Of a DNA stretch of 32,000 bases, positions 4,466-32,000 are shown piece after piece; positions within the stretch are counted from its first letter, which is position 1, and each line of letters starts with the position of its first letter. This DNA is from Patescibacteria group bacterium (GTDB lineage Bacteria; Patescibacteriota; Minisyncoccia; UBA6257; HR35). The stretch lies in contig JAUQQN010000005.1 in assembly GCA_030549845.1 (NCBI GenBank), forward strand, positions 1 to 32,000, written 5' to 3'. Below the pieces are notes generated by a model. It saw nothing but the letters and a program-made list of their open reading frames with translations, was not told where the DNA came from and did not search any database. The position numbers and the translations under genes were made by a program.

Positions 4466-5116
4466 TTAGATTATTAAATTCTCGTGTTTCTTATCTCTAC
4501 AAGAGCATCTTGGCGGCGTATCCATAACTAAAAAAGTATGAAGCATTTGTGCTCTTTGAATTAAATGCTCTAAATACCAATCAGAGTAAAAGTGTGGGAA
4601 TTCTTTAAGTTTTAAACCACCATCTAAATCATATCCAGCATACAATAGTACTCCTTTTACTCTTTTTAGCGCAGCTAAATAAAAATTAAGCTGAAGTTTG
4701 TGCGCAAAATGTGGATTTGGCGGGACAGTTCTTACGTGTTTAAATTCCCACACCTCCTCATCAACTCCTTTTCCCCTAATAGCATCTGCGTGTCCAATAA
4801 TCTTTATTTTCTCGCCAGCAACATCAACGTCTATAGAGCACTCAACCTCAACCCTATCCCAGAAATTTTTTCCTTCCCTATCTTTTAATGATTGGATCAG
4901 TCTATGAAAAACTACGCCACCAGCCAATAAAAGAACAATATCGTCTGGAATTTCTTCCGGCTTTTTACCATCAAAAAATCGATAATAATTAAACTGCTTC
5001 CTTGTGCAGCTCCACGCCAAAACAGATGGTCTGTAAATTCCAATCTTCACTGGCTGATTATTCTCGCCGAAATACTTTTTTCTACAATAATCCGCGAGTA
5101 ATTTTTGTATTGTCAT
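4466..5116 (-). CDS. PD-(D/E)XK nuclease, Cas4-like
   Basis: N-terminal Cys (WSCTRKQFNYY), GGVVFHRL, GHADAI (D), EFK (ExK), QLNFY (QxxxY) and a C-terminal RCSC. Strong SD AGGGGTGAT lies 5 nt before the ATG. Confidence 0.55.
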   Translation of the reverse strand: MTIQKLLADYCRKKYFGENNQPVKIGIYRPSVLAWSCTRKQFNYYRFFDGKKPEEIPDDIVLLLAGGVVFHRLIQSLKDREGKNFWDRVEVECSIDVDVAGEKIKIIGHADAIRGKGVDEEVWEFKHVRTVPPNPHFAHKLQLNFYLAALKRVKGVLLYAGYDLDGGLKLKEFPHFYSDWYLEHLIQRAQMLHTFLVMDTPPRCSCRDKKHENLII

Positions 5117-23621: not shown

Positions 23622-24116
23622 TTATTCTAAACCATAAATTTTTTTGAACTCCTCTCTGGCTCTTTTTTCAAGTTGATCCATTGGCAAAGAAGATAAATCC
23701 TCCTCAAGGCTTGGTGAAATTGTTTTAGATCCCAAAGAAAATCCACTAATATTTTGATTTGTTTCGTTTTCAAGTATTTTTTTACCTATATATCTTGATA
23801 CCGTGTCTTCTATGGGTTCTCCTTGTTTTCTTAAATTCCATATATCATCTATCTCGTTTGCTAGGTGTGGAAATTTTTTTAAAATAGTATTCTCAAAATC
23901 TAGTTTATCAACCTTCAATGCTAACTCATCTATATTCGCTATTCTCGAAACTGTTTTTAGATGCTTATTTTCTTCCTCTAATTCTTTTAATCTTTTAAGC
24001 GAATCCTCATATTTTTTTCTTAAAAGCTTAATAACATTACTCTCTACATCGTTTTTAACATTTTCTTGTTTATTTTCTTCTTTTTGTTCCTCTTGTTCTT
24101 TTATTTCTTCGCCCAT
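23622..24116 (-). CDS. scaffolding protein
   Basis: Acidic coiled-coil protein (EEQKEENKQEN..LKRLKELEEENKHLK) between portal and capsid. Track start 24152 is TTG; the first ATG is 24116 (MGEEIKEQ). Confidence 0.6.
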   Translation of the reverse strand: MGEEIKEQEEQKEENKQENVKNDVESNVIKLLRKKYEDSLKRLKELEEENKHLKTVSRIANIDELALKVDKLDFENTILKKFPHLANEIDDIWNLRKQGEPIEDTVSRYIGKKILENETNQNISGFSLGSKTISPSLEEDLSSLPMDQLEKRAREEFKKIYGLE

Positions 24117-24170
24117 TATTTTACGCTTGATTGGTCGGGAGCAACCAATCAAGGATAATTAATTACTTTT

Positions 24171-24512
24171 TTAAAGATAAAAATTCAATATTTCTGGGTC
24201 TTGGTATCCCCCCATGTTTTCAACAAGTCTTCTACATGTTTCGGCATTACAAATCCACACCTCGAGCCTCTTCCAGTATTTATATATACTTTGAGAAAAT
24301 CTTTGTGGATTACTAGAGCCCCCACAAAGGCATTTAAATGTTTTGTTTTTAAATAAATAACCCAATTCTTCGCACTCGTCTACTTTTTTACCACAAAATT
24401 CACACCTACCACCAATAATTCTTAATGACTCAATTTTTTTATGCCCAACCGCGCTCTCTTCCCCACCATTATTTTGTTCAACTATAATTTCTTCTTTATT
24501 TTTTCTTGCCAT
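24171..24512 (-). CDS. zinc-ribbon protein (113 aa)
   Basis: CEFCGKKVDEC..CLCGG..WICNAETC cysteine pairs. Confidence 0.55.
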   Translation of the reverse strand: MARKNKEEIIVEQNNGGEESAVGHKKIESLRIIGGRCEFCGKKVDECEELGYLFKNKTFKCLCGGSSNPQRFSQSIYKYWKRLEVWICNAETCRRLVENMGGYQDPEILNFYL

Positions 24513-24519
24513 AATTTTA

Positions 24520-24834
24520 TTATAAACCCTCTTTTTCTTTTGTCAAGAAAGAGGTATATAGGTCTATTTGTTTAATTAATTCCGATGGTAAAGAAATTAA
24601 AAAATCAATAGCAACCAAACTTTGTTTATATGCATAAAAGTCGTCTATAGATCCTCTTGTATCCTTTTTAAAATTATCTAAAAGGTTCTCTCTAGCCTCA
24701 AGTAATATACTTTTTAAAACAGACCATTCTTCTGAACCCTCTAAAACCCTTAATTTGGTTAAAATTCTATGTGCTTTTTCTAAATCATCTCCTATTAATT
24801 TTTCTAATGTTTTTTGAAAATAAATATCCTGCAT
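24520..24834 (-). CDS. hypothetical protein (104 aa)
   Basis: ORF in the head-module operon. Helical. Confidence 0.55.
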   Translation of the reverse strand: MQDIYFQKTLEKLIGDDLEKAHRILTKLRVLEGSEEWSVLKSILLEARENLLDNFKKDTRGSIDDFYAYKQSLVAIDFLISLPSELIKQIDLYTSFLTKEKEGL

Positions 24835-24842
24835 ACCTTAAA

Positions 24843-25043
24843 TTATCTTTTTTTCTTTTTTCTTTGTACCCCGTGTTTGCCATAAGCAATGGCCGCGGCT
24901 TGTTTTAGTGCTTCTTCTTGTGTTTGGGGTTTATAAGTAGCCCTACTAGTTGTCATTTTTCCAGTTTCCTTCCATTCTCTCATTAATTTTTCTATTTCAT
25001 TAGATATTTTTTCTTTTTTTTCTTTTGATATCTTTCTTGTCAT
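24843..25043 (-). CDS. hypothetical basic protein (66 aa)
   Basis: ORF whose start overlaps the portal stop by 1 nt. Confidence 0.5.
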   Translation of the reverse strand: MTRKISKEKKEKISNEIEKLMREWKETGKMTTSRATYKPQTQEEALKQAAAIAYGKHGVQRKKKKR

Positions 25044-27001
25044 TATTTTATTTCGGTGGGGGTATTGGGTTCAATTGATTTTAATAAACCCATAATACCC
25101 TCATTTAATATATTTTTTTCTTCTTCTTCTACTGAGGTTGGTTTGGGAAATTCTATATTTTCTATTTTTTCACCACCCTTCTTTCTTCTTTCTTCTTTCA
25201 AATTCTTAATTCCTCTCTTTTTTAAATAATTAAGATAATGAACGTAAATATGCGCATTTCTTGCTTCTGTTTCTGGTGATTTATAATGTATTGATATGTG
25301 TTCTAAGTCGTCGTCTTCTTCCATAACATCAACATAGTTATTTTCTTTTAGTTCTTCATTTTCTAATTTTGCCTTCAATTCGTGTGGTGTTGGGGGAAGT
25401 AAAATTTCAACTTGTTGCGGAGAGAGATCCATGTCGTATAGTAAAATTTTTAATGCCTCCTTTGGATTCCCGCCCAATTGTATTAAAAGTGGTAAAACCT
25501 CGGCCATCTCTCTTCTTCTAATTATTTTGTTTGGTTCTGTAAGAAGTGAAGAAACTATTTTAATGTCTGGATCAATTTCCGGGATAAAATCTGATTTTTT
25601 AACCTCACGAAAACTTTCTGCGCCGTAATAACCAACTACTTTTATAAGTTTTGTATCTCTTGGTTTTAAAAATCTTTTGTGTCTTTTGAGCCACCTATAC
25701 CAAAAGTCTTTTTCACCATCTAAAATATTTCTCATAATACTTGAAATCTGTAAATCCTGCTTTGCTTTTGCTATGGCTATTTCTGTTGCTGTTTTTTTGA
25801 CTTGCGTTAGAGAGCCCCTTAAAATTCTTGATGCTCCAACGGCACCAACCGCTTCATTTTGAATAATATTCATAAATGATATTGTATCATTAGAAACTAC
25901 ACCAGATTTCGGAAATGGAGTAATCTGACCTTGTGGGGGAACGTTAGTAAATATGTTTTTTCCTATTTCTCTTGTTAGCAAATCTTTTGGATTAACTAGG
26001 GCATTAACATTTACAAGAAACTGTGGAACGGCGTCCATTATTATTCCCTTTAATAGAAAGTTTTTAAGAATAACATCAACCCTATGGTTGTCCTCAATAA
26101 TATCTGGTAAACCTATGCCCCAACCAGAAATACTTGTTTTAATGAAATAATAAAATATAAATGGTATTTTGCTTTCATTGTTTCCTTTATCTCTATAATC
26201 TACCCTTCTAAATCCTAGTAAATTACTTATTCCGTTATCTGTCCAAACAACCCATAATTTGTTATTATTATAAAAATACCACTCTAAAATCTCTTGGTAA
26301 GTACTATTCATTACTGGCTCAAAAGAATAATTGTCGCCAATTAGAATTTGTTTTGCTTCTTCTTCTTGCCTTCTTTCATATGTTAGTGATTGAGCTGATT
26401 TAAATAGAATACTTTTTACTTTTTTCTCGTCTAGATTTGGATTATTAAGAAGTTCTTCCGGTGTTTTATAAACGAACCTTCCAGCAAATCTCGCGTCCTC
26501 AATTGAGGTTGCTTTAGGATCCAAAAAGAATGTAAAAGGAGATTGAACCACCGGTAAGAGAATCTTTCGAGATGTATCATATATAGAAACATCTAAAATT
26601 CCTGTTCCAAAAAAGATAATATCCCAGTTAAGCTCCCTTTGAATTTTTGCCATTCCCATTTCATCAAAATCAAAATCAGCAACAGCATTAGCAAATTTAA
26701 CTTTTTCTATATCTTCTGGTTTTCTTTCTTTAAACTCTGTCCTTCTTATATCATTATCAATCGAAGAATAAAGCTCGTGAAATTGAGTGAAGGTAAGTTT
26801 TGAACCAATTTGAATATCTGAAATAGATTTTCTGAATTGATTTAGATATAATTTGAGTTCTTCTAACCAAACCCTTTTTCTATTTAACCAAGACTCGCGA
26901 GAATAATTAAATTGACTTCTAACAATTTGAAGTATTTCATCTTCCCTCCATTCGTTTAAATCCCTTGTTATAAGTTCAATTAGTCTCTGTTGATTGATCA
27001 T
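25043..27001 (-). CDS. portal protein
   Basis: 652 aa, located between the large terminase and the scaffold/capsid genes, with an acidic C-terminus. The call rests on size and synteny. Confidence 0.65.
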   Translation of the reverse strand: MINQQRLIELITRDLNEWREDEILQIVRSQFNYSRESWLNRKRVWLEELKLYLNQFRKSISDIQIGSKLTFTQFHELYSSIDNDIRRTEFKERKPEDIEKVKFANAVADFDFDEMGMAKIQRELNWDIIFFGTGILDVSIYDTSRKILLPVVQSPFTFFLDPKATSIEDARFAGRFVYKTPEELLNNPNLDEKKVKSILFKSAQSLTYERRQEEEAKQILIGDNYSFEPVMNSTYQEILEWYFYNNNKLWVVWTDNGISNLLGFRRVDYRDKGNNESKIPFIFYYFIKTSISGWGIGLPDIIEDNHRVDVILKNFLLKGIIMDAVPQFLVNVNALVNPKDLLTREIGKNIFTNVPPQGQITPFPKSGVVSNDTISFMNIIQNEAVGAVGASRILRGSLTQVKKTATEIAIAKAKQDLQISSIMRNILDGEKDFWYRWLKRHKRFLKPRDTKLIKVVGYYGAESFREVKKSDFIPEIDPDIKIVSSLLTEPNKIIRRREMAEVLPLLIQLGGNPKEALKILLYDMDLSPQQVEILLPPTPHELKAKLENEELKENNYVDVMEEDDDLEHISIHYKSPETEARNAHIYVHYLNYLKKRGIKNLKEERRKKGGEKIENIEFPKPTSVEEEEKNILNEGIMGLLKSIEPNTPTEIK

Positions 27002-27371
27002 TTTTTGTAGAATACGGATATGGTTCTATTTCCTTTAATTTTTCTTCAACTATTTTTATAAATTGTTCTCTTGTTATTGGTGGTGGTTTAAGCTCTTTTT
27101 CTTGTCTTGTGGTAAACCTAGGATAAGCTAGAGCAATCACACAAAATTCTTCTGGTAATTCTCTAATCATTATATCATCATATAGATAATAATTTTCTTC
27201 TTTTGCTTTTTTAATTATTACACTTAAAAGCTCTTTTTTTAATCTTTCATCTATTCCTTCTTTTAAAAACCTTATAGAGCCAACTTTATATAACCAATCT
27301 GGATGCTTTTTGGCTATTTCATCTTTTTTAATCCTCGCATACAGAACCCTTACAAATTCTTTTTTAAACAT
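26976..27371 (-). CDS. hypothetical protein (131 aa)
   Basis: ORF between TerL and the portal. Abuts the TerL stop. Confidence 0.55.
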   Translation of the reverse strand: MFKKEFVRVLYARIKKDEIAKKHPDWLYKVGSIRFLKEGIDERLKKELLSVIIKKAKEENYYLYDDIMIRELPEEFCVIALAYPRFTTRQEKELKPPPITREQFIKIVEEKLKEIEPYPYSTKNDQSTETN

Positions 27372-28724
27372 TTAAATATTATACCACTCTTTTTGAAAAT
27401 TAAGAAGACTTTTTATTTTGTCTATATCAACAAAAAATGTTAGAGCAAGGGCATCGGCAACGTCTGGAGATGGAATACCCCTTTTCCTTAAAATGTCTTT
27501 TGGTATTATCATTATTTTTTTATCAGAATTTTTTTTATATTTAATGTTTAAAATTTGATTAAATGAATCATCTTTAATTAATTTTCCTCCCCCCAAAATC
27601 CAATTTCTTAACTTCCAGTATAGCTCCGCCCTAATATTTAAAAAATCTGGCTCAGATGATTTATTTCCCAAAACAATCGGAATTAAATTTAAAAAGCCGA
27701 TTTCCCTTAATCTATCTACAACACCCCTTCCAACACCAATTGCATCTATACAAATTTTAATAATTGGATAAATTTTTGATAAATTAAAAATTAAAGTAAT
27801 AATTTGCATCGTATCTTCTAATTTTTGATTAAATACTACTTTTGCTAATAAATTATTTCTTAAAACTATTGCTGTTTTATCTCCTCCGGCCCCAACATCA
27901 ACACCAAGTATGTTTTCTGAGTTTTTAAAAATTTTTTCAAATTCCTCGCCAAATACAAATGCATTTTCTAGCTCTTTAGATGTAATCAATGAAATAAAGC
28001 CCGACTCATCCATTTCACCCTCGAAAGCATACCAGTCACCATCCAAAAATGCCCCCCTTTCTTTTTCTGGTAAACTTTTAAGTTGCTCAAAATATTCATA
28101 ATTCAAATATGGATTATCGTGTGGTAATGCCTTAATAAAAGCTATTTGATTCCTATATTTCTCAAACTCTGATGGAAGATTTTTTTCAACAAAAAATTGC
28201 CTTACCCATAGCATATGTTCTCCAATTGGATTTGATGCGCAGATAAATTTTGTATCTTCAATACCAGGATATCTTAATCGAGTTAAAAGAATCTTAAAAG
28301 TTTCAAATGGTATTTGTGTTATTTCATCAATTGCCATTAAAGCAAATTCAGCAGAAAGATATTTTTCTGGTTCATCTAGGTTCCTAAAACTAATAATTGC
28401 TCCCCCATATTCTTCTTTTAAGTGAAATTCCTTTTTTTGCTCATAAAAGTCTCCTAACCATTCTGGAAATTCTTGTCTAATATACTTTAAATGTCTGTCT
28501 TCTAATTCCTTATAAGTTTTACAAAATAAGCCAATATGAGTAGAAGCGCCATATTTTTTAGCATAATACAAAGCATAATATAAAGAAATCCATCTCAGTG
28601 CATAACTTTTTCCACTCCCAGCACTCCCCCCGTACAAAACAAATTTATTTTCTTTTGTAGCCCGTAAAAACTCAATCTGTTTTTCAAAAAAATTTGCTAA
28701 CCGAAAAAAGTTTATTTTATTCAT
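27372..28724 (-). CDS. terL: terminase large subunit
   Basis: Walker A LYGGSAGSGKSY, Walker B LMAIDEI and coupling motif CASNP. C-terminal RNase-H-like nuclease with GVDVGAGGDKTA, CIDAIGVG and DVADAL. Track start 28733 is TTG; ATG is at 28724. Confidence 0.9.
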   Translation of the reverse strand: MNKINFFRLANFFEKQIEFLRATKENKFVLYGGSAGSGKSYALRWISLYYALYYAKKYGASTHIGLFCKTYKELEDRHLKYIRQEFPEWLGDFYEQKKEFHLKEEYGGAIISFRNLDEPEKYLSAEFALMAIDEITQIPFETFKILLTRLRYPGIEDTKFICASNPIGEHMLWVRQFFVEKNLPSEFEKYRNQIAFIKALPHDNPYLNYEYFEQLKSLPEKERGAFLDGDWYAFEGEMDESGFISLITSKELENAFVFGEEFEKIFKNSENILGVDVGAGGDKTAIVLRNNLLAKVVFNQKLEDTMQIITLIFNLSKIYPIIKICIDAIGVGRGVVDRLREIGFLNLIPIVLGNKSSEPDFLNIRAELYWKLRNWILGGGKLIKDDSFNQILNIKYKKNSDKKIMIIPKDILRKRGIPSPDVADALALTFFVDIDKIKSLLNFQKEWYNI

Positions 28725-28900
28725 ATATACCAAATAAAAATTATATTAAATTTTTGCCCAAAATTGTCTTATAATTGATGTTTTTTTTATTCCCTTGTAC
28801 CACCCTACAAGAGATTAAATTAATCATAAATTATAACTCAAAATAAAAGAATTTTTCCAACTAGCTTAATCAAATTTCACATATTTTTATTTTTAAAAAC

Positions 28901-28932
28901 AAATCTAAACAGATTAGATTTTTAAAATCTAA
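28901..28932. repeat. three-arm inverted repeat able to form two alternative hairpins
   Basis: AAATCTAA (28901-28908), TTAGATTT (28914-28921), AAATCTAA (25-32 of the same decade, i.e. 28925-28932). The middle arm can pair with either flank. Lies in the 221-bp gap between the terS-like gene and terL. Confidence 0.5.
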
Positions 28933-28954
28933 TTTTTATTTTTTTTTAAAAAAA

Positions 28955-29365
28955 TTAAATCTCAATTATTTTTTCCTCTTTATCTTTTTCCCCCTCTTCA
29001 TTTTCTTTTTTAAATTTTTCTTTTGCTGGTTCGGTTAAATCTATAAGTAGCTGCTTTTGAATAACCTCCAGTTGTTCTGGTGCTTTCCCAAATAGTCTAT
29101 CCATGAAATCCCGCCAAAATTGATAATCTCCTTTAAACATCCTTTTAAAACCCAATTTAATTATTTCAATTTTTGCTTTATCCGGATTTTTGTTTAAATT
29201 CAAAGCTTCCGCTACTTCTTTCCAAGCTTCCCTAAAATAAGTTTCAAAATTTTTTCTTCCTTTTGGCCTACCGTGCGGATTCCCCGAAACCCCGGGGGGA
29301 AATGGCCTCCCTCTTAAGATTTTTCCAGTTTTACTAATAATTTTGTTTTGATTTTGGCCCTCCAT
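28955..29365 (-). CDS. terminase small subunit candidate (DUF5681-like N-terminus)
   Basis: GRPFPPGVSGNPHGRPKGRKN matches the F.pGqSGNP.GRPKG motif I recall from DUF5681 proteins, which often sit upstream of terL. The C-terminus is acidic. Confidence 0.5.
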   Translation of the reverse strand: MEGQNQNKIISKTGKILRGRPFPPGVSGNPHGRPKGRKNFETYFREAWKEVAEALNLNKNPDKAKIEIIKLGFKRMFKGDYQFWRDFMDRLFGKAPEQLEVIQKQLLIDLTEPAKEKFKKENEEGEKDKEEKIIEI

Positions 29366-29543
29366 TTAATTAATTTTTTTAATTTTCTCAGCCCCCCCTC
29401 CTGGGATTTTAATTCTTTAACTCCTTTTTCTGGTTAATTTTTTCCATTTTTACCCTTTTTTAATTTTACCATAATTTTTAATTTTTTTTAAGTCACCATA
29501 AAATTTAAATTTTTTATAAATCCTAGGAAAAATCCCCAAAAAT

Positions 29544-29709
29544 GTTTCCAATGAACTAGTGTAGGATTGAAAGACTTATTTTTATTTTAATAATATAAAA
29601 AAATCTTTTGTTTCCAATGAACTAGTGTAGGATTGAAAGGAAATTAAAGCAAGTGTAGATAAAATTACACTAACACTAAGTTTCCAATGAACTAGTGTAG
29701 GATTGAAAG
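29544..29709 (+). CRISPR. cas-less CRISPR mini-array: 3 identical 30-nt repeats, 2 spacers (36 and 40 nt)
   Basis: GTTTCCAATGAACTAGTGTAGGATTGAAAG at 29544-29573, 29610-29639 and 29680-29709. Spacers are ACTTATTTTTATTTTAATAATATAAAAAAATCTTTT and GAAATTAAAGCAAGTGTAGATAAAATTACACTAACACTAA. Orientation is set by the 3' ATTGAAAG tag. A 178-bp AT-rich leader lies upstream. Confidence 0.8.
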
Positions 29710-29877
29710 ATGCTTGGAAGAGGTTAAAGATTTTATTTTCAAATGGTAAGGGGATTGATTTAACATTGAGCTAATCCTAAAACTAACATTATAGTAGAGC
29801 TTGCTTTTTTATCATGGAATTCTTTCTGTTTTTGCTCAAGATATTTTTACTTTAATTTTAATTTTCTAATCTTTAAG

Positions 29878-29886
29878 TTATCCACA
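29878..29886 (+). promoter_or_regulatory. consensus DnaA box (TTATCCACA) 11 nt upstream of a -35 element
   Basis: Exact 9/9 match to TTATCCACA. It is the only perfect copy outside the 1186/1198 pair. Confidence 0.45.
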
Positions 29887-29896
29887 GTCCATGTGC

Positions 29897-29924
29897 TTGA
29901 CAAAAAAAATTTGAGGAATATAAT
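29897..29924 (+). promoter_or_regulatory. consensus sigma70 promoter
   Basis: TTGACA (29897-29902), 16-nt spacer, TATAAT (29919-29924). Both hexamers are perfect. Confidence 0.7.
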
Positions 29925-29957
29925 TATTTAAAGTTAAAAAAATAAAAATTAAAAAAT

Positions 29958-29998
29958 TTGGCTGCCACATGGTATTTAAAGAATACCGAGGTGGCCAA
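29958..29998 (+). promoter_or_regulatory. 5' UTR hairpin that pairs the only SD-like element of ORF 30004
   Basis: Outer helix 29958-29966 with 29990-29998 (7 Watson-Crick plus 2 G-U pairs). Inner helix 29971-29975 with 29983-29987. GAGGTGG (29988-29994) lies in the 3' arm, 9 nt before the ATG. Confidence 0.45.
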
Positions 29999-30003
29999 AA
30001 AAT

Positions 30004-30399
30004 ATGAATGAAAAAGAAAGAAGAAAAATTAAAGTTGAAAAAATTAATTTTAGGGGCGAGGAAGTGTATACAATCAAACTTAGAAGGTGGCTCTCTCACG
30101 GTAAGGAGTGGGCAGCCCTAATTGTAAACGGAGTAATAACTAGTGATGGTAAAAAAATAATAAATTTAGAATTTTGCCCGAAAATAATTTTTGAGTGGTC
30201 TCATTCAGGAAAAAACGGAACAACTATAGTGAAATTGTTAGGAGGAGGATTTTACAAAATCTCAAATCCTGATGGTGTTTACGGAAAAGACGCCATTGGC
30301 TATTATTTCTGGGATGGAAAAAGTGATGAAATGAAAGAAGTGGATGAAGACTTTGCAATTATTTACGCAGATACATGGTCTTATCACATCCAAAAATAA
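30004..30399 (+). CDS. hypothetical protein (131 aa)
   Basis: ORF downstream of the consensus promoter. No motif recognised. Confidence 0.65.
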   Translation: MNEKERRKIKVEKINFRGEEVYTIKLRRWLSHGKEWAALIVNGVITSDGKKIINLEFCPKIIFEWSHSGKNGTTIVKLLGGGFYKISNPDGVYGKDAIGYYFWDGKSDEMKEVDEDFAIIYADTWSYHIQK

Positions 30400-30428
30400 C
30401 TAAGGTATAACTTAACTAAGGTATAACT
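30397..30428 (+). repeat. 16-bp tandem direct repeat x2 (TAACTAAGGTATAACT) plus a partial third
   Basis: Copies at 30397-30412 and 30413-30428 are identical, and AGGTAT recurs at 30430. The first copy begins at the TAA stop of ORF 30004..30399. Confidence 0.7.
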
Positions 30429-30491
30429 CAGGTATCTGCTTTATAACCGCTAACTGTTTTTGGCCTGTTTCTTTTATATTTTCCAAAATTT

Positions 30492-30535
30492 TAAATTTTA
30501 TTTTTTAAGATTCTAAATTTTATTTTTTAAGATTC
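30492..30535 (+). repeat. 22-bp tandem duplication x2 (TAAATTTTATTTTTTAAGATTC)
   Basis: Copies at 30492-30513 and 30514-30535 are identical. The second copy contains the stop and last codons of ORF 30527..31657 (-). Confidence 0.7.
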
Positions 30536-31657
30536 TGCTGTAAGATTTTTATATTCCTCTTCAGTAATTTTAAATTTCCAAGCAAATGCGGAATAGACAC
30601 TATTTATATTTTTTGGAATAAATGAAATATATTCTTTCCCTGTGCTTATATCTTTATATTTTAAAAATTTAACAAAATCATTTGTATTTTCATTTAAAAC
30701 CATCCACAACTCCCCCCTCTCATTTTTATCTTTTAAAACAGCCAATTTTTCATACTCAAGTGCTTTTTCTAATCCGCCAATAAATTTTGTAAATATAACT
30801 CTTTTTTCTACATTTCTTATTCCTAATAAATTATAAATACTAATATTTTTATTTAAAATAAGAGAAGACTCAAGCACCTCTTTGTCTGAGTTCTCATGTA
30901 ATAATAAATATTTAAAATCTATTTTATTTTTTTCTAACAAATTTTTTAAAATGTTTAAATCATTAACATCTTGAAAGTTAAAATAAAAATAAAATGATTG
31001 CATAAAAAAATCTGAATTAGAATTAAATAAATTATATAAACTTTCTTTATTTATTAATAATTTCATAACCCCGCTTATGTGCATTTTTTTATTATTAATA
31101 ATTTCTATTCCAAGCATGTCAACAACATCTACATTCTCAATAATTACTTCTTTTGTGCTTACTTTCTTTTTCTCTCTTAAAACCGGCAAAAATGATAAAA
31201 CATTACCCCTTTTTATATTAATATTTTTAATTCTTTTATTTTTATTTTCAACAAAAAGCATTAAATTATCAAACCCCTCACCCTCTATAACCTGAAAATT
31301 TGAGAAAACCTTAAAAGATTTTTTTATATTATTAAAAGAAAAATAAGTATATATTTTTTTATCGACCGTCAGCTGTGCAGTTTTTGAATAAACATCATTT
31401 AAATAAATTTTTAAATAGCTACTTAAAACAGGTAAATTATTATCTATTTTAATATCTAGCTCTCCTGTCTCTAGCCCCTGCACAACAACATTTTTAACAT
31501 TTAAAAAATTACAATATAAAAACTCATTAACTTTTTCATTATAATTTTTCCCTGTTAAATAAACATCTTTTATATTTTCCTCATAAAATTCTAAAACTTT
31601 ACTTTCTTTTTTACTTGTATAATTTTCATCTTTTATTAATATTTTTTTATCAAGCAT
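30527..31657 (-). CDS. hypothetical protein (376 aa), very Lys/Asn/Ile-rich
   Basis: Long ORF. The C-terminal GELWMVLNE..YKDISTGKEYISFIPKNINSVYSAFAWKFKITEEEY resembles a conserved C-terminal module of uncharacterised proteins that I cannot name with certainty. Confidence 0.6.
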   Translation of the reverse strand: MLDKKILIKDENYTSKKESKVLEFYEENIKDVYLTGKNYNEKVNEFLYCNFLNVKNVVVQGLETGELDIKIDNNLPVLSSYLKIYLNDVYSKTAQLTVDKKIYTYFSFNNIKKSFKVFSNFQVIEGEGFDNLMLFVENKNKRIKNINIKRGNVLSFLPVLREKKKVSTKEVIIENVDVVDMLGIEIINNKKMHISGVMKLLINKESLYNLFNSNSDFFMQSFYFYFNFQDVNDLNILKNLLEKNKIDFKYLLLHENSDKEVLESSLILNKNISIYNLLGIRNVEKRVIFTKFIGGLEKALEYEKLAVLKDKNERGELWMVLNENTNDFVKFLKYKDISTGKEYISFIPKNINSVYSAFAWKFKITEEEYKNLTAES

Positions 31658-31714
31658 GTTTTTTTAATCCTTAAATCCTAATTTTTAGGATTTAAGGATT
31701 TAATTATTAATAAA

Positions 31715-31981
31715 TTAATCATTTATATTTTCCCAATCATCTGTCAAATAATTAAAATTTCTCTCACATAAAACAGCATATAAACCCTCCTCAACCTGTA
31801 TATCTTTATGCTCTTCATGTTTTAAAATCCCCCTACAGTTTTCTAATTTTATAAAAATTATATTTTCATTTAATTTTAAATCACTTCCCTCAAAAACATA
31901 AAAATTTTTATCACTTACTAAAATATGTTTATGCCCGCCCGCACCTTCCTTTATTACAAACTCATTTATCTTATTTACCAT
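31715..31981 (-). CDS. hypothetical small protein (88 aa), possibly a cupin-like beta barrel
   Basis: GGHKH..ILKHEEHKDIQVEEGLYAV His-rich pattern. Complete ORF near the window edge. Confidence 0.5.
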   Translation of the reverse strand: MVNKINEFVIKEGAGGHKHILVSDKNFYVFEGSDLKLNENIIFIKLENCRGILKHEEHKDIQVEEGLYAVLCERNFNYLTDDWENIND

Positions 31982-32000
31982 TTTTTTAATAATAAATCTT

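Follow-up and report, generated by a model that had tools for sequence, protein, structure and literature searches.

Viruses are known to carry CRISPR mini-arrays of one or two spacers, with repeats identical to those of the host and spacers that are mostly directed against related viruses (PMC11656645). In the Saccharolobus portogloboviruses SPV1 and SPV2 the targets of the mini-arrays lie near the array itself (Medvedeva et al. 2019, PMC6858448), and the mini-arrays of phages were catalogued by Faure et al. 2019, whose work is taken here from the summary in PMC11656645. The locus described here, at 29544-29709 of a 32,000-nucleotide stretch of DNA (the window), is a genuine virus-borne CRISPR mini-array, without cas genes, on a phage genome. 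It shares with SPV1, SPV2 and the mini-arrays of Faure et al. the small number of spacers (one or two), the absence of cas genes, the intergenic position, the host-identical repeat, a spacer that matches a close relative from related samples, a site in the carrier that bears point changes, and a target near the array. It differs from SPV1 and SPV2 in its host, which is a bacterial member of the CPR/Patescibacteria with a type I-B system and not an archaeon of the Sulfolobales, and in its leader, which is unlike that of the host and has no recognisable promoter, as is the case for the bacteriophage mini-arrays. Set against the SPV1/SPV2 pattern, no reciprocity in the form of a rival's spacer directed against this phage was observed, and a target is seen for spacer 1 only.

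Other phage-borne repeats resemble the locus in part. Racr (Camara-Wilpert et al. 2023, PMC10651486) are likewise phage-encoded copies of host repeats without cas genes, whereas the present locus is a full repeat-spacer-repeat-spacer-repeat unit with spacers of host length, no strong promoter immediately upstream and one perfect natural target; the single repeat placed directly after a strong promoter that characterises Racr and other solitary repeat units was not found here. The prophage arrays of Clostridioides difficile (Hargreaves et al. 2014, PMC4173771) are also phage-borne, of type I-B, reliant on host cas genes and equipped with spacers that target further phages of their host. They are longer and sit on integrated temperate phages, in contrast to the two spacers here and a phage in which no integrase was detected, and their repeat sequence and host phylum are different. 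The combination of an integrase with a repeat-like attP that marks array-directed prophage integration was not found either. What we describe is a known viral trick in an unusual host group, not a new kind of system.

The window belongs to a tailed phage of ~33 kb with a GC content of ~30%, encoding terminase, an SU10-type portal and adaptor, a major head protein, and tail and lysis genes; no tRNA was found in it. Pfam scans of all substantial ORFs in the window bear out the claim, made in an earlier note on this DNA, that there is no cas gene: with Pfam and NCBIfam together, no cas family scored above cutoff among the window ORFs, and no integrase or recombinase domain was found in those scanned. 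Beyond the window lies ~1.1 kb of the source contig, of which 496 nt could be read in the Logan contig L018 and contain no integrase-sized gene. The same note had credited the phage with two Cas4-family nucleases, a claim that did not hold, as only the ORF at 4466-5116 (minus strand) matches PDDEXK_1 (23.2 bits, cutoff 22); on the cas4 model TIGR00372 it reaches 21 bits against a cutoff of 65, and it is a marginal PD-(D/E)XK protein. A similar early-gene block in the relative L021 encodes a 283-aa PDDEXK_1 protein.

The array itself has the anatomy first read from the sequence: in a non-coding gap, three identical 30-nt repeats alternate with two spacers, one 36 nt and the other 40 nt long. 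The copies of GTTTCCAATGAACTAGTGTAGGATTGAAAG lie on the plus strand at 29544-29573 (repeat 1), 29610-29639 (repeat 2) and 29680-29709 (repeat 3), and enclose two mutually unrelated spacers, spacer 1 (36 nt, 29574-29609) and spacer 2 (40 nt, 29640-29679). All three repeats are perfect and free of decay, including repeat 3, which is intact and not degenerate. With up to three mismatches allowed the window contains three matches to the repeat, as against none in 100 dinucleotide shuffles, and no additional copy occurs in the window even at up to nine mismatches. The locus combines two spacers between full repeats with a viral genome lacking cas genes and a repeat identical to that of the host, the features by which mini-arrays are recognised. 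No ORF of at least 25 aa covers the array, and the sole ORF overlapping it is one of 33 aa (29450-29551, minus strand) that takes in the first 8 nt of repeat 1. Rfam returned nothing at gathering thresholds for the window, CRISPR-DR matches being sub-threshold only. The repeat, whose 3' end is ATTGAAAG, is essentially unstructured (MFE -1 kcal/mol).

To the left of the array, a gap in the leader position (29366-29543, plus strand; 178 nt, 23% GC) separates repeat 1 from a DUF5681 ORF in the terS position (28955-29365, minus strand), beyond which lies the large terminase TerL, a tailed-phage marker (27372-28733, minus strand). To the right, a consensus sigma70 promoter matching at 12 of 12 positions (29897-29924, plus strand) stands before a 131-aa ORF with no function assigned (30004-30399, plus strand), which adjoins the array; there follows a 376-aa ORFan (30527-31657, minus strand) that gave zero matches to Pfam, PHROG or NCBIfam and belongs to two 90% clusters only among 5.8 billion proteins. 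The promoter and the 5' UTR behind it form a duplicated module (TTGACA-N16-TATAAT followed by TATTTAAAGTTAA...), found at 29897-29942 of the window and at 2512-2567 of L018 (minus strand), just beyond the window end. The two modules precede two unrelated ORFs of ~130 aa, which point towards each other from either side of the 376-aa ORFan, and the host spacers hs12, hs13 and hs23 aim at the duplicated promoter copies. We considered whether the ORF at 30004-30399 and the 130-aa ORF past the window end might be paralogues and rejected this, as the duplication covers the promoter, 5' UTR and start module only. At the 3' end of the ORF at 30004-30399 there is also a perfect 16-nt tandem duplication (30397-30428; TAACTAAGGTATAACT twice), which starts within the stop codon.

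The owner of the repeat could be traced. The exact 30-mer occurs on two contigs of the species-representative genome collection, and JAUQQM010000007.1, a contig of a Patescibacteria MAG with 27% GC, carries it downstream of cas1, cas2 and a ~111-nt leader, in 23 perfect copies plus a degenerate last one, all on one strand. By this layout the repeat is transcribed in the sense that the earlier note had assumed, ending in ATTGAAAG. Logan and JGI contigs that share this leader and first repeat encode close relatives of the Cas2 (99% identity), and the longest of these contigs, L009, has the order cas7-cas5b-cas3-333-aa gene-cas4-cas1b-cas2-leader-repeat. In L009, cas7 (Cst2/DevR) scores 121 bits on TIGR02585 (cutoff 73) and Cas1b 467 bits on TIGR03641 (cutoff 304), a cas3 core of HD and helicase is present, and the matches to Cas5b and Cas4 are weak. 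Judged from these genes, the host system that owns the repeat is of type I-B with the canonical gene order. Contigs with the identical repeat end upstream of cas7, and cas8b and cas6 would lie past the contig end; the relative L016 (Cas2 78%) has cas6 and a 369-aa gene without assignment. Neither the 333-aa gene of L009 (3703-4704, in the interval between cas3 and cas4) nor the 369-aa and 107-aa genes of L016 (3117-4533) has a Pfam or NCBIfam match, and these family-less genes of the two operons may encode Cas8 or Cas11 subunits that have diverged in CPR systems.

With the exact 30-mer in cas-adjacent Patescibacteria arrays, the host array of the same repeat that the earlier note had proposed to look for is in hand. 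This excludes two outcomes that the note had named as fatal to its reading, namely that the repeat is merely dispersed and that no host carries it. Its suggestion of a type I-B or type III host effector survives in its first half, for which Cas1b, Cas7, Cas5b, Cas3 and Cas4 speak; nothing was found for the second, with no type III genes seen among the cas genes of the host contigs. Repeats of the Pyrococcus furiosus type, with the AUUGAAAG 5' tag, are processed by Cas6 and belong to types I-A, I-B and III-B. The resemblance to the P. furiosus repeat that had been pointed out amounts to identity at 24 of 31 aligned columns, without identity overall, against what we take to be the sequence of that repeat; unlike P. 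furiosus, the host is bacterial and has type I-B genes, none of type III having been seen.

Host and phage are similar in GC content (27% versus 30%) and co-occur in run SRR21619497, where L008 contains exact copies of the Cas2, the leader and the repeat and where two contigs of the phage, L018 and L023, are 100% identical to the window. A Saccharibacteria contig, L002, was also considered as host and is unlikely to be one, with a GC content of 50% against 30% for the phage and one exact repeat accompanied by variant copies. A second host array, L004, adjoins a cellular DUF2207 membrane-protein gene. Translation of its spacer 3 (TAGTATAAGTCAAGAAGAGTATAAAAACTTAACGGC) gives ...SQEEYKNLTA, a sequence similar to the C-terminal end of the 376-aa ORFan of the window (...TEEEYKNLTAES), and on the strength of this translation the second array seems to be aimed at a more distant homologue of the ORFan gene.

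The host array L001/L006 is directed at the phage itself. Its spacers match the window in 15 cases out of 23, and in 18 out of 23 when the 496-nt extension in L018 and the variant phage L019 are included; seven of the matches are perfect, five of them in the window with NCA flanks and two in the L018 extension or L019. A conserved PAM, which the earlier note had proposed to seek beside protospacers, emerges from these host spacers: of the 18 protospacers, 14 have NCA as their 5' flank (binomial p=2e-15 against a background of 5.1%), the remainder being CCT (2), GCC (1) and GGA (1), and C stands at -2 in 17 of the 18. The 5' position of this PAM is as expected for type I, and it resembles what we take to be the PAM of Clostridioides difficile, CCW as against NCA here. 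Near the mini-array, hs20 matches perfectly within TerL at 28351-28393, hs9, hs2 and hs19 map inside the ORF in the terS position, hs12 overlaps the consensus promoter, four host spacers match the 131-aa ORF, and hs3, hs16 and hs22 match the 376-aa ORFan.

When the 33,079-nt contig is taken as a circle, all 15 of the window protospacers fall within 28351-32000 or 1-1576, an arc of 6.3 kb. Such clustering was reached in 0 of 100,000 simulations, and ~26 kb of structural and tail genes contain no host-spacer match. The mini-array and the carrier's site for spacer 1 both lie inside this arc, the latter near its centre. Leader-distal host spacers tend towards more mismatches, with the perfect hs20 as the exception. 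Repeated acquisition from one region would fit either primed adaptation in successive rounds or a hot spot at a DNA end beside the packaging genes. Six perfect or near-perfect host spacers lying in genes or at gene edges (410-446, 1538-1576, 28351-28393, 29001-29038, 31140-31181 and 31736-31772) would give crRNAs that are all antisense to the local genes, with the strand flipping near 32 kb; this pattern could reflect a strand bias of priming, or could hint that the array also serves an RNA-targeting effector.

Spacer 1 of the mini-array matches a variant phage, L019 (run SRR27730028), at 36 of 36 positions with the flank TCT; the DNA of this variant is 92.7% identical to that of the carrier, and it holds the other 90%-cluster homologue of the ORFan. 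In the carrier, 35 of 36 positions match at 31313-31348 (minus strand, which is the coding strand of the ORF at 30527-31657), ~1.6 kb from the array, with the mismatch at spacer position 11 and TAT as the 5' flank. Position 11 lies outside the usual type I seed. The carrier site has no PAM, as the near-invariant C at -2 is absent. Spacer 1 reads in the sense of the ORFan mRNA and is usable there only by a DNA-targeting type I effector and not by an RNA-targeting type III effector. A perfect match in the variant together with the differences in the carrier is the pattern expected for superinfection exclusion of relatives. That role had been proposed in the earlier note, and it gains support, at the level of sequence, from a spacer that is perfect in a ~93%-identical variant and a carrier that differs at -2 and at one further position.

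With moderate confidence, we take the phage crRNAs to be used by host Cas6 and the type I-B Cascade-Cas3 machinery against co-infecting relatives, with the carrier spared. What has been observed under this reading is the anatomy of the array, a repeat identical to that of the host, the type I-B genes and the PAM of the host, and a perfect target in the variant phage. The array would be transcribed rightward during infection, and host Cas6 would cleave each repeat to leave an 8-nt AUUGAAAG 5' tag. The two crRNAs would then be loaded into the host type I-B Cascade, and Cascade and Cas3 would attack the DNA of co-infecting close relatives wherever a matching protospacer lies beside a licensed PAM. 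The carrier would escape through a spacer-1 site that has TAT instead of TCT or TCA, with loss of the C at -2, and one mismatch. Transcription, processing, loading and interference at the TCT flank are proposed by analogy with published mini-arrays. Points against such targeting are the lack of a plus-strand leader promoter scoring at least 9/12, the host-unlike leader, the TCT flank and a spacer 2 without a target. Moreover, no integrase was found, and a phage that is strictly lytic would leave little time for the crRNAs to be loaded.

The flanks of the two spacer-1 sites deserve particular caution. None of the 18 flanks of host spacers is TCT, so that its licensing of interference is no more than presumed; a synonymous substitution separates it from TCA, and L019 with its TCT flank may itself be a PAM escaper. 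We also rejected the claim that the two differences of the carrier are escape mutations, since they are within the 9% local neutral divergence; for the same reason, selection for self-avoidance is not demonstrated. We give a slim chance to a related process, self-priming, in which the spacer-1 crRNA of the phage would bring host Cascade to the imperfect site in the carrier, with primed acquisition of spacers around it as the result.

For spacer 2 no target was found in IMG/VR, whether with the exact 40-mer, a wobble-degenerate pattern or the central 22-mer, nor in the window or any phage or host locus compared. Spacer 1 was likewise absent from IMG/VR, and the whole mini-array (29544-29709) had no BLAST match to plasmids. 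Among the viral contigs compared, a target was found for spacer 1, with its 36/36 match in L019, and not for spacer 2. Against the host cas loci the best matches of the spacers reach 24-26 identical positions of 36-40, which is the chance level for AT-rich DNA, and neither spacer has a PAM-plus-seed match in the promoters of the host cas loci compared. These results speak against crRNA-like repression of host cas or toxin genes through partial matches, and the lack of an integrase or recombinase in the window speaks against a use of the repeat as homology for integration into CRISPR arrays. Phage crRNA-like regulators have been reported (bioRxiv 10.1101/2024.10.29.618823), and the repeat is identical to that of the host; even so, we consider roles of this kind very unlikely.

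The spacers may also matter less than the repeats. In an RNA decoy of the Racr kind, harmless phage crRNAs would flood host Cas6 and Cascade and dilute the host crRNAs directed against the phage; spacer content would then be secondary, and the two activities, decoy and targeting, are compatible. The phage is under heavy I-B pressure, with 18 of 23 host spacers matching its lineage, and its repeat is the host repeat. In the Racr study a non-targeting crRNA also cut interference and let the phage infect (PMC10651486). Both known spacer-1 sites are without an NCA flank, so that the spacers may be harmless fillers. Racrs, however, are solitary repeat units directly after a strong promoter, whereas this locus has three repeats, spacers of normal length and no good promoter upstream, and a decoy needs no perfect 36/36 match to a co-circulating relative. 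On balance we regard a decoy as the main function as unlikely, if well worth considering.

The leader region bears on the origin of the array. No sigma70-like site scoring at least 9/12 was found on the plus strand of 29366-29543, and a promoter-like site on the minus strand (29815-29788) would read antisense through the array. Sequence comparison led us to reject homology of the phage leader with the host leader, no similarity being found beyond AT-rich 12-mers, and the promoter-bearing leader resembling host leaders that is typical of SPV1/2 was not found in the phage array. [quoted passage not shown] Within the leader region, 70 nt (29447-29515) are 80% conserved in L021, where they lie upstream of a methyltransferase gene. 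A family of C-rich 14-mers resembling CCAGCACTCCCCCC has three copies amid the AT-rich DNA (28618-28631, 29388-29401 and 30704-30717), one of which falls in the leader-position gap.

A block of repeat-spacer-repeat-spacer-repeat captured from a host array by recombination could also sit here as an inert, functionless passenger, in which case spacer 1 would be an old host anti-phage spacer already escaped by both known phage variants. A leader that is promoterless and unrelated to the host leader fits such a capture, as do the relatives without the array and the position of the array within the 6.3-kb arc of all window host protospacers, a heavily targeted region that offers many spacer/protospacer homologies for recombination. 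The spacer-1 flanks, TCT in L019 (synonymous to TCA) and TAT in the carrier, are compatible with successive PAM escapes. There are also a TCA and a CCA at 29493-29498, and the left flank could be a former spacer of 45-48 nt, but this length is at the extreme of the host spacer range of 35-48 nt. Against capture of a dead block stand the three perfect repeats, with no decay, and the absence of both spacers from the 37 host spacers compared; mini-arrays have, furthermore, been functional in the published cases tested (PMC11656645). We therefore hold a functionless passenger to be improbable, without dismissing it.

The array is strain-specific. It is absent from L021 and L003, the closest longer relatives, which indicates a recent strain-level acquisition. 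L022, a relative found via its terS-like protein, ends 194 nt short of the array position, and a TerL search of IMG/VR yielded one relative at 44% identity, without repeats; the exact repeat is absent from IMG/VR, and 24100-32000 of the window has no match among GenBank phages. In L021 (8677-9996; Logan SRR27730027; terS 87% identical) an N6/N4 DNA methyltransferase gene occupies the position of the mini-array beside terS, and the slot may be a variable locus for anti-defence or competition.

The array could also be the product of an assembler that, misled by sequence shared between host spacers and phage, took a detour from the phage through a host CRISPR array. Some host spacers do have exact copies in the phage DNA nearby, and host and phage share one sequencing run. 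Independent support for the junctions covers the right side only, as L023, a Logan contig 100% identical to the window, begins inside TerL. At the right junction, however, the independent Logan contig L018 begins inside repeat 3 and can be followed through 2.8 kb of phage DNA to which it is 100% identical, without interruption where a spacer would have ended, and this continuity argues against the detour. In addition, the phage DNA is collinear on either side of the array, the shared segments of 36-48 nt are, we infer, shorter than an assembler would need to make a join at the final k-mer sizes in common use, and spacers 1 and 2 are in none of the host arrays compared. A chimeric assembly is highly improbable on these grounds.

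Bacteria of the CPR/Patescibacteria are ultra-small and have not been cultured, and very little is known of their phages. CRISPR was present in only ~10% of groundwater CPR MAGs in one survey (bioRxiv 10.1101/2025.02.25.640227), and keyword searches of the literature covered here found no prior report of mini-arrays in CPR phages. The locus extends virus-borne mini-arrays to the phages of this group. It also carries a practical warning: where phages bear arrays with the repeats of their hosts, the assignment of hosts by spacers and the binning of MAGs can be corrupted. If the self-priming suggested above were true, it would explain both the hyper-targeting of the region and the proximity of mini-array and target noted for SPV1 and SPV2, and the array would carry a hidden cost or, alternatively, would steer host immunity towards the fast-evolving ORFans, so that the structural genes are spared. 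For the organisms concerned, what comes into view is an unusually complete, two-sided CRISPR conflict, with an active, spacer-saturated type I-B host array and its derived PAM, NCA, on one side and, on the other, a phage that bears the host's own repeat and a spacer against a ~93%-identical sibling phage.
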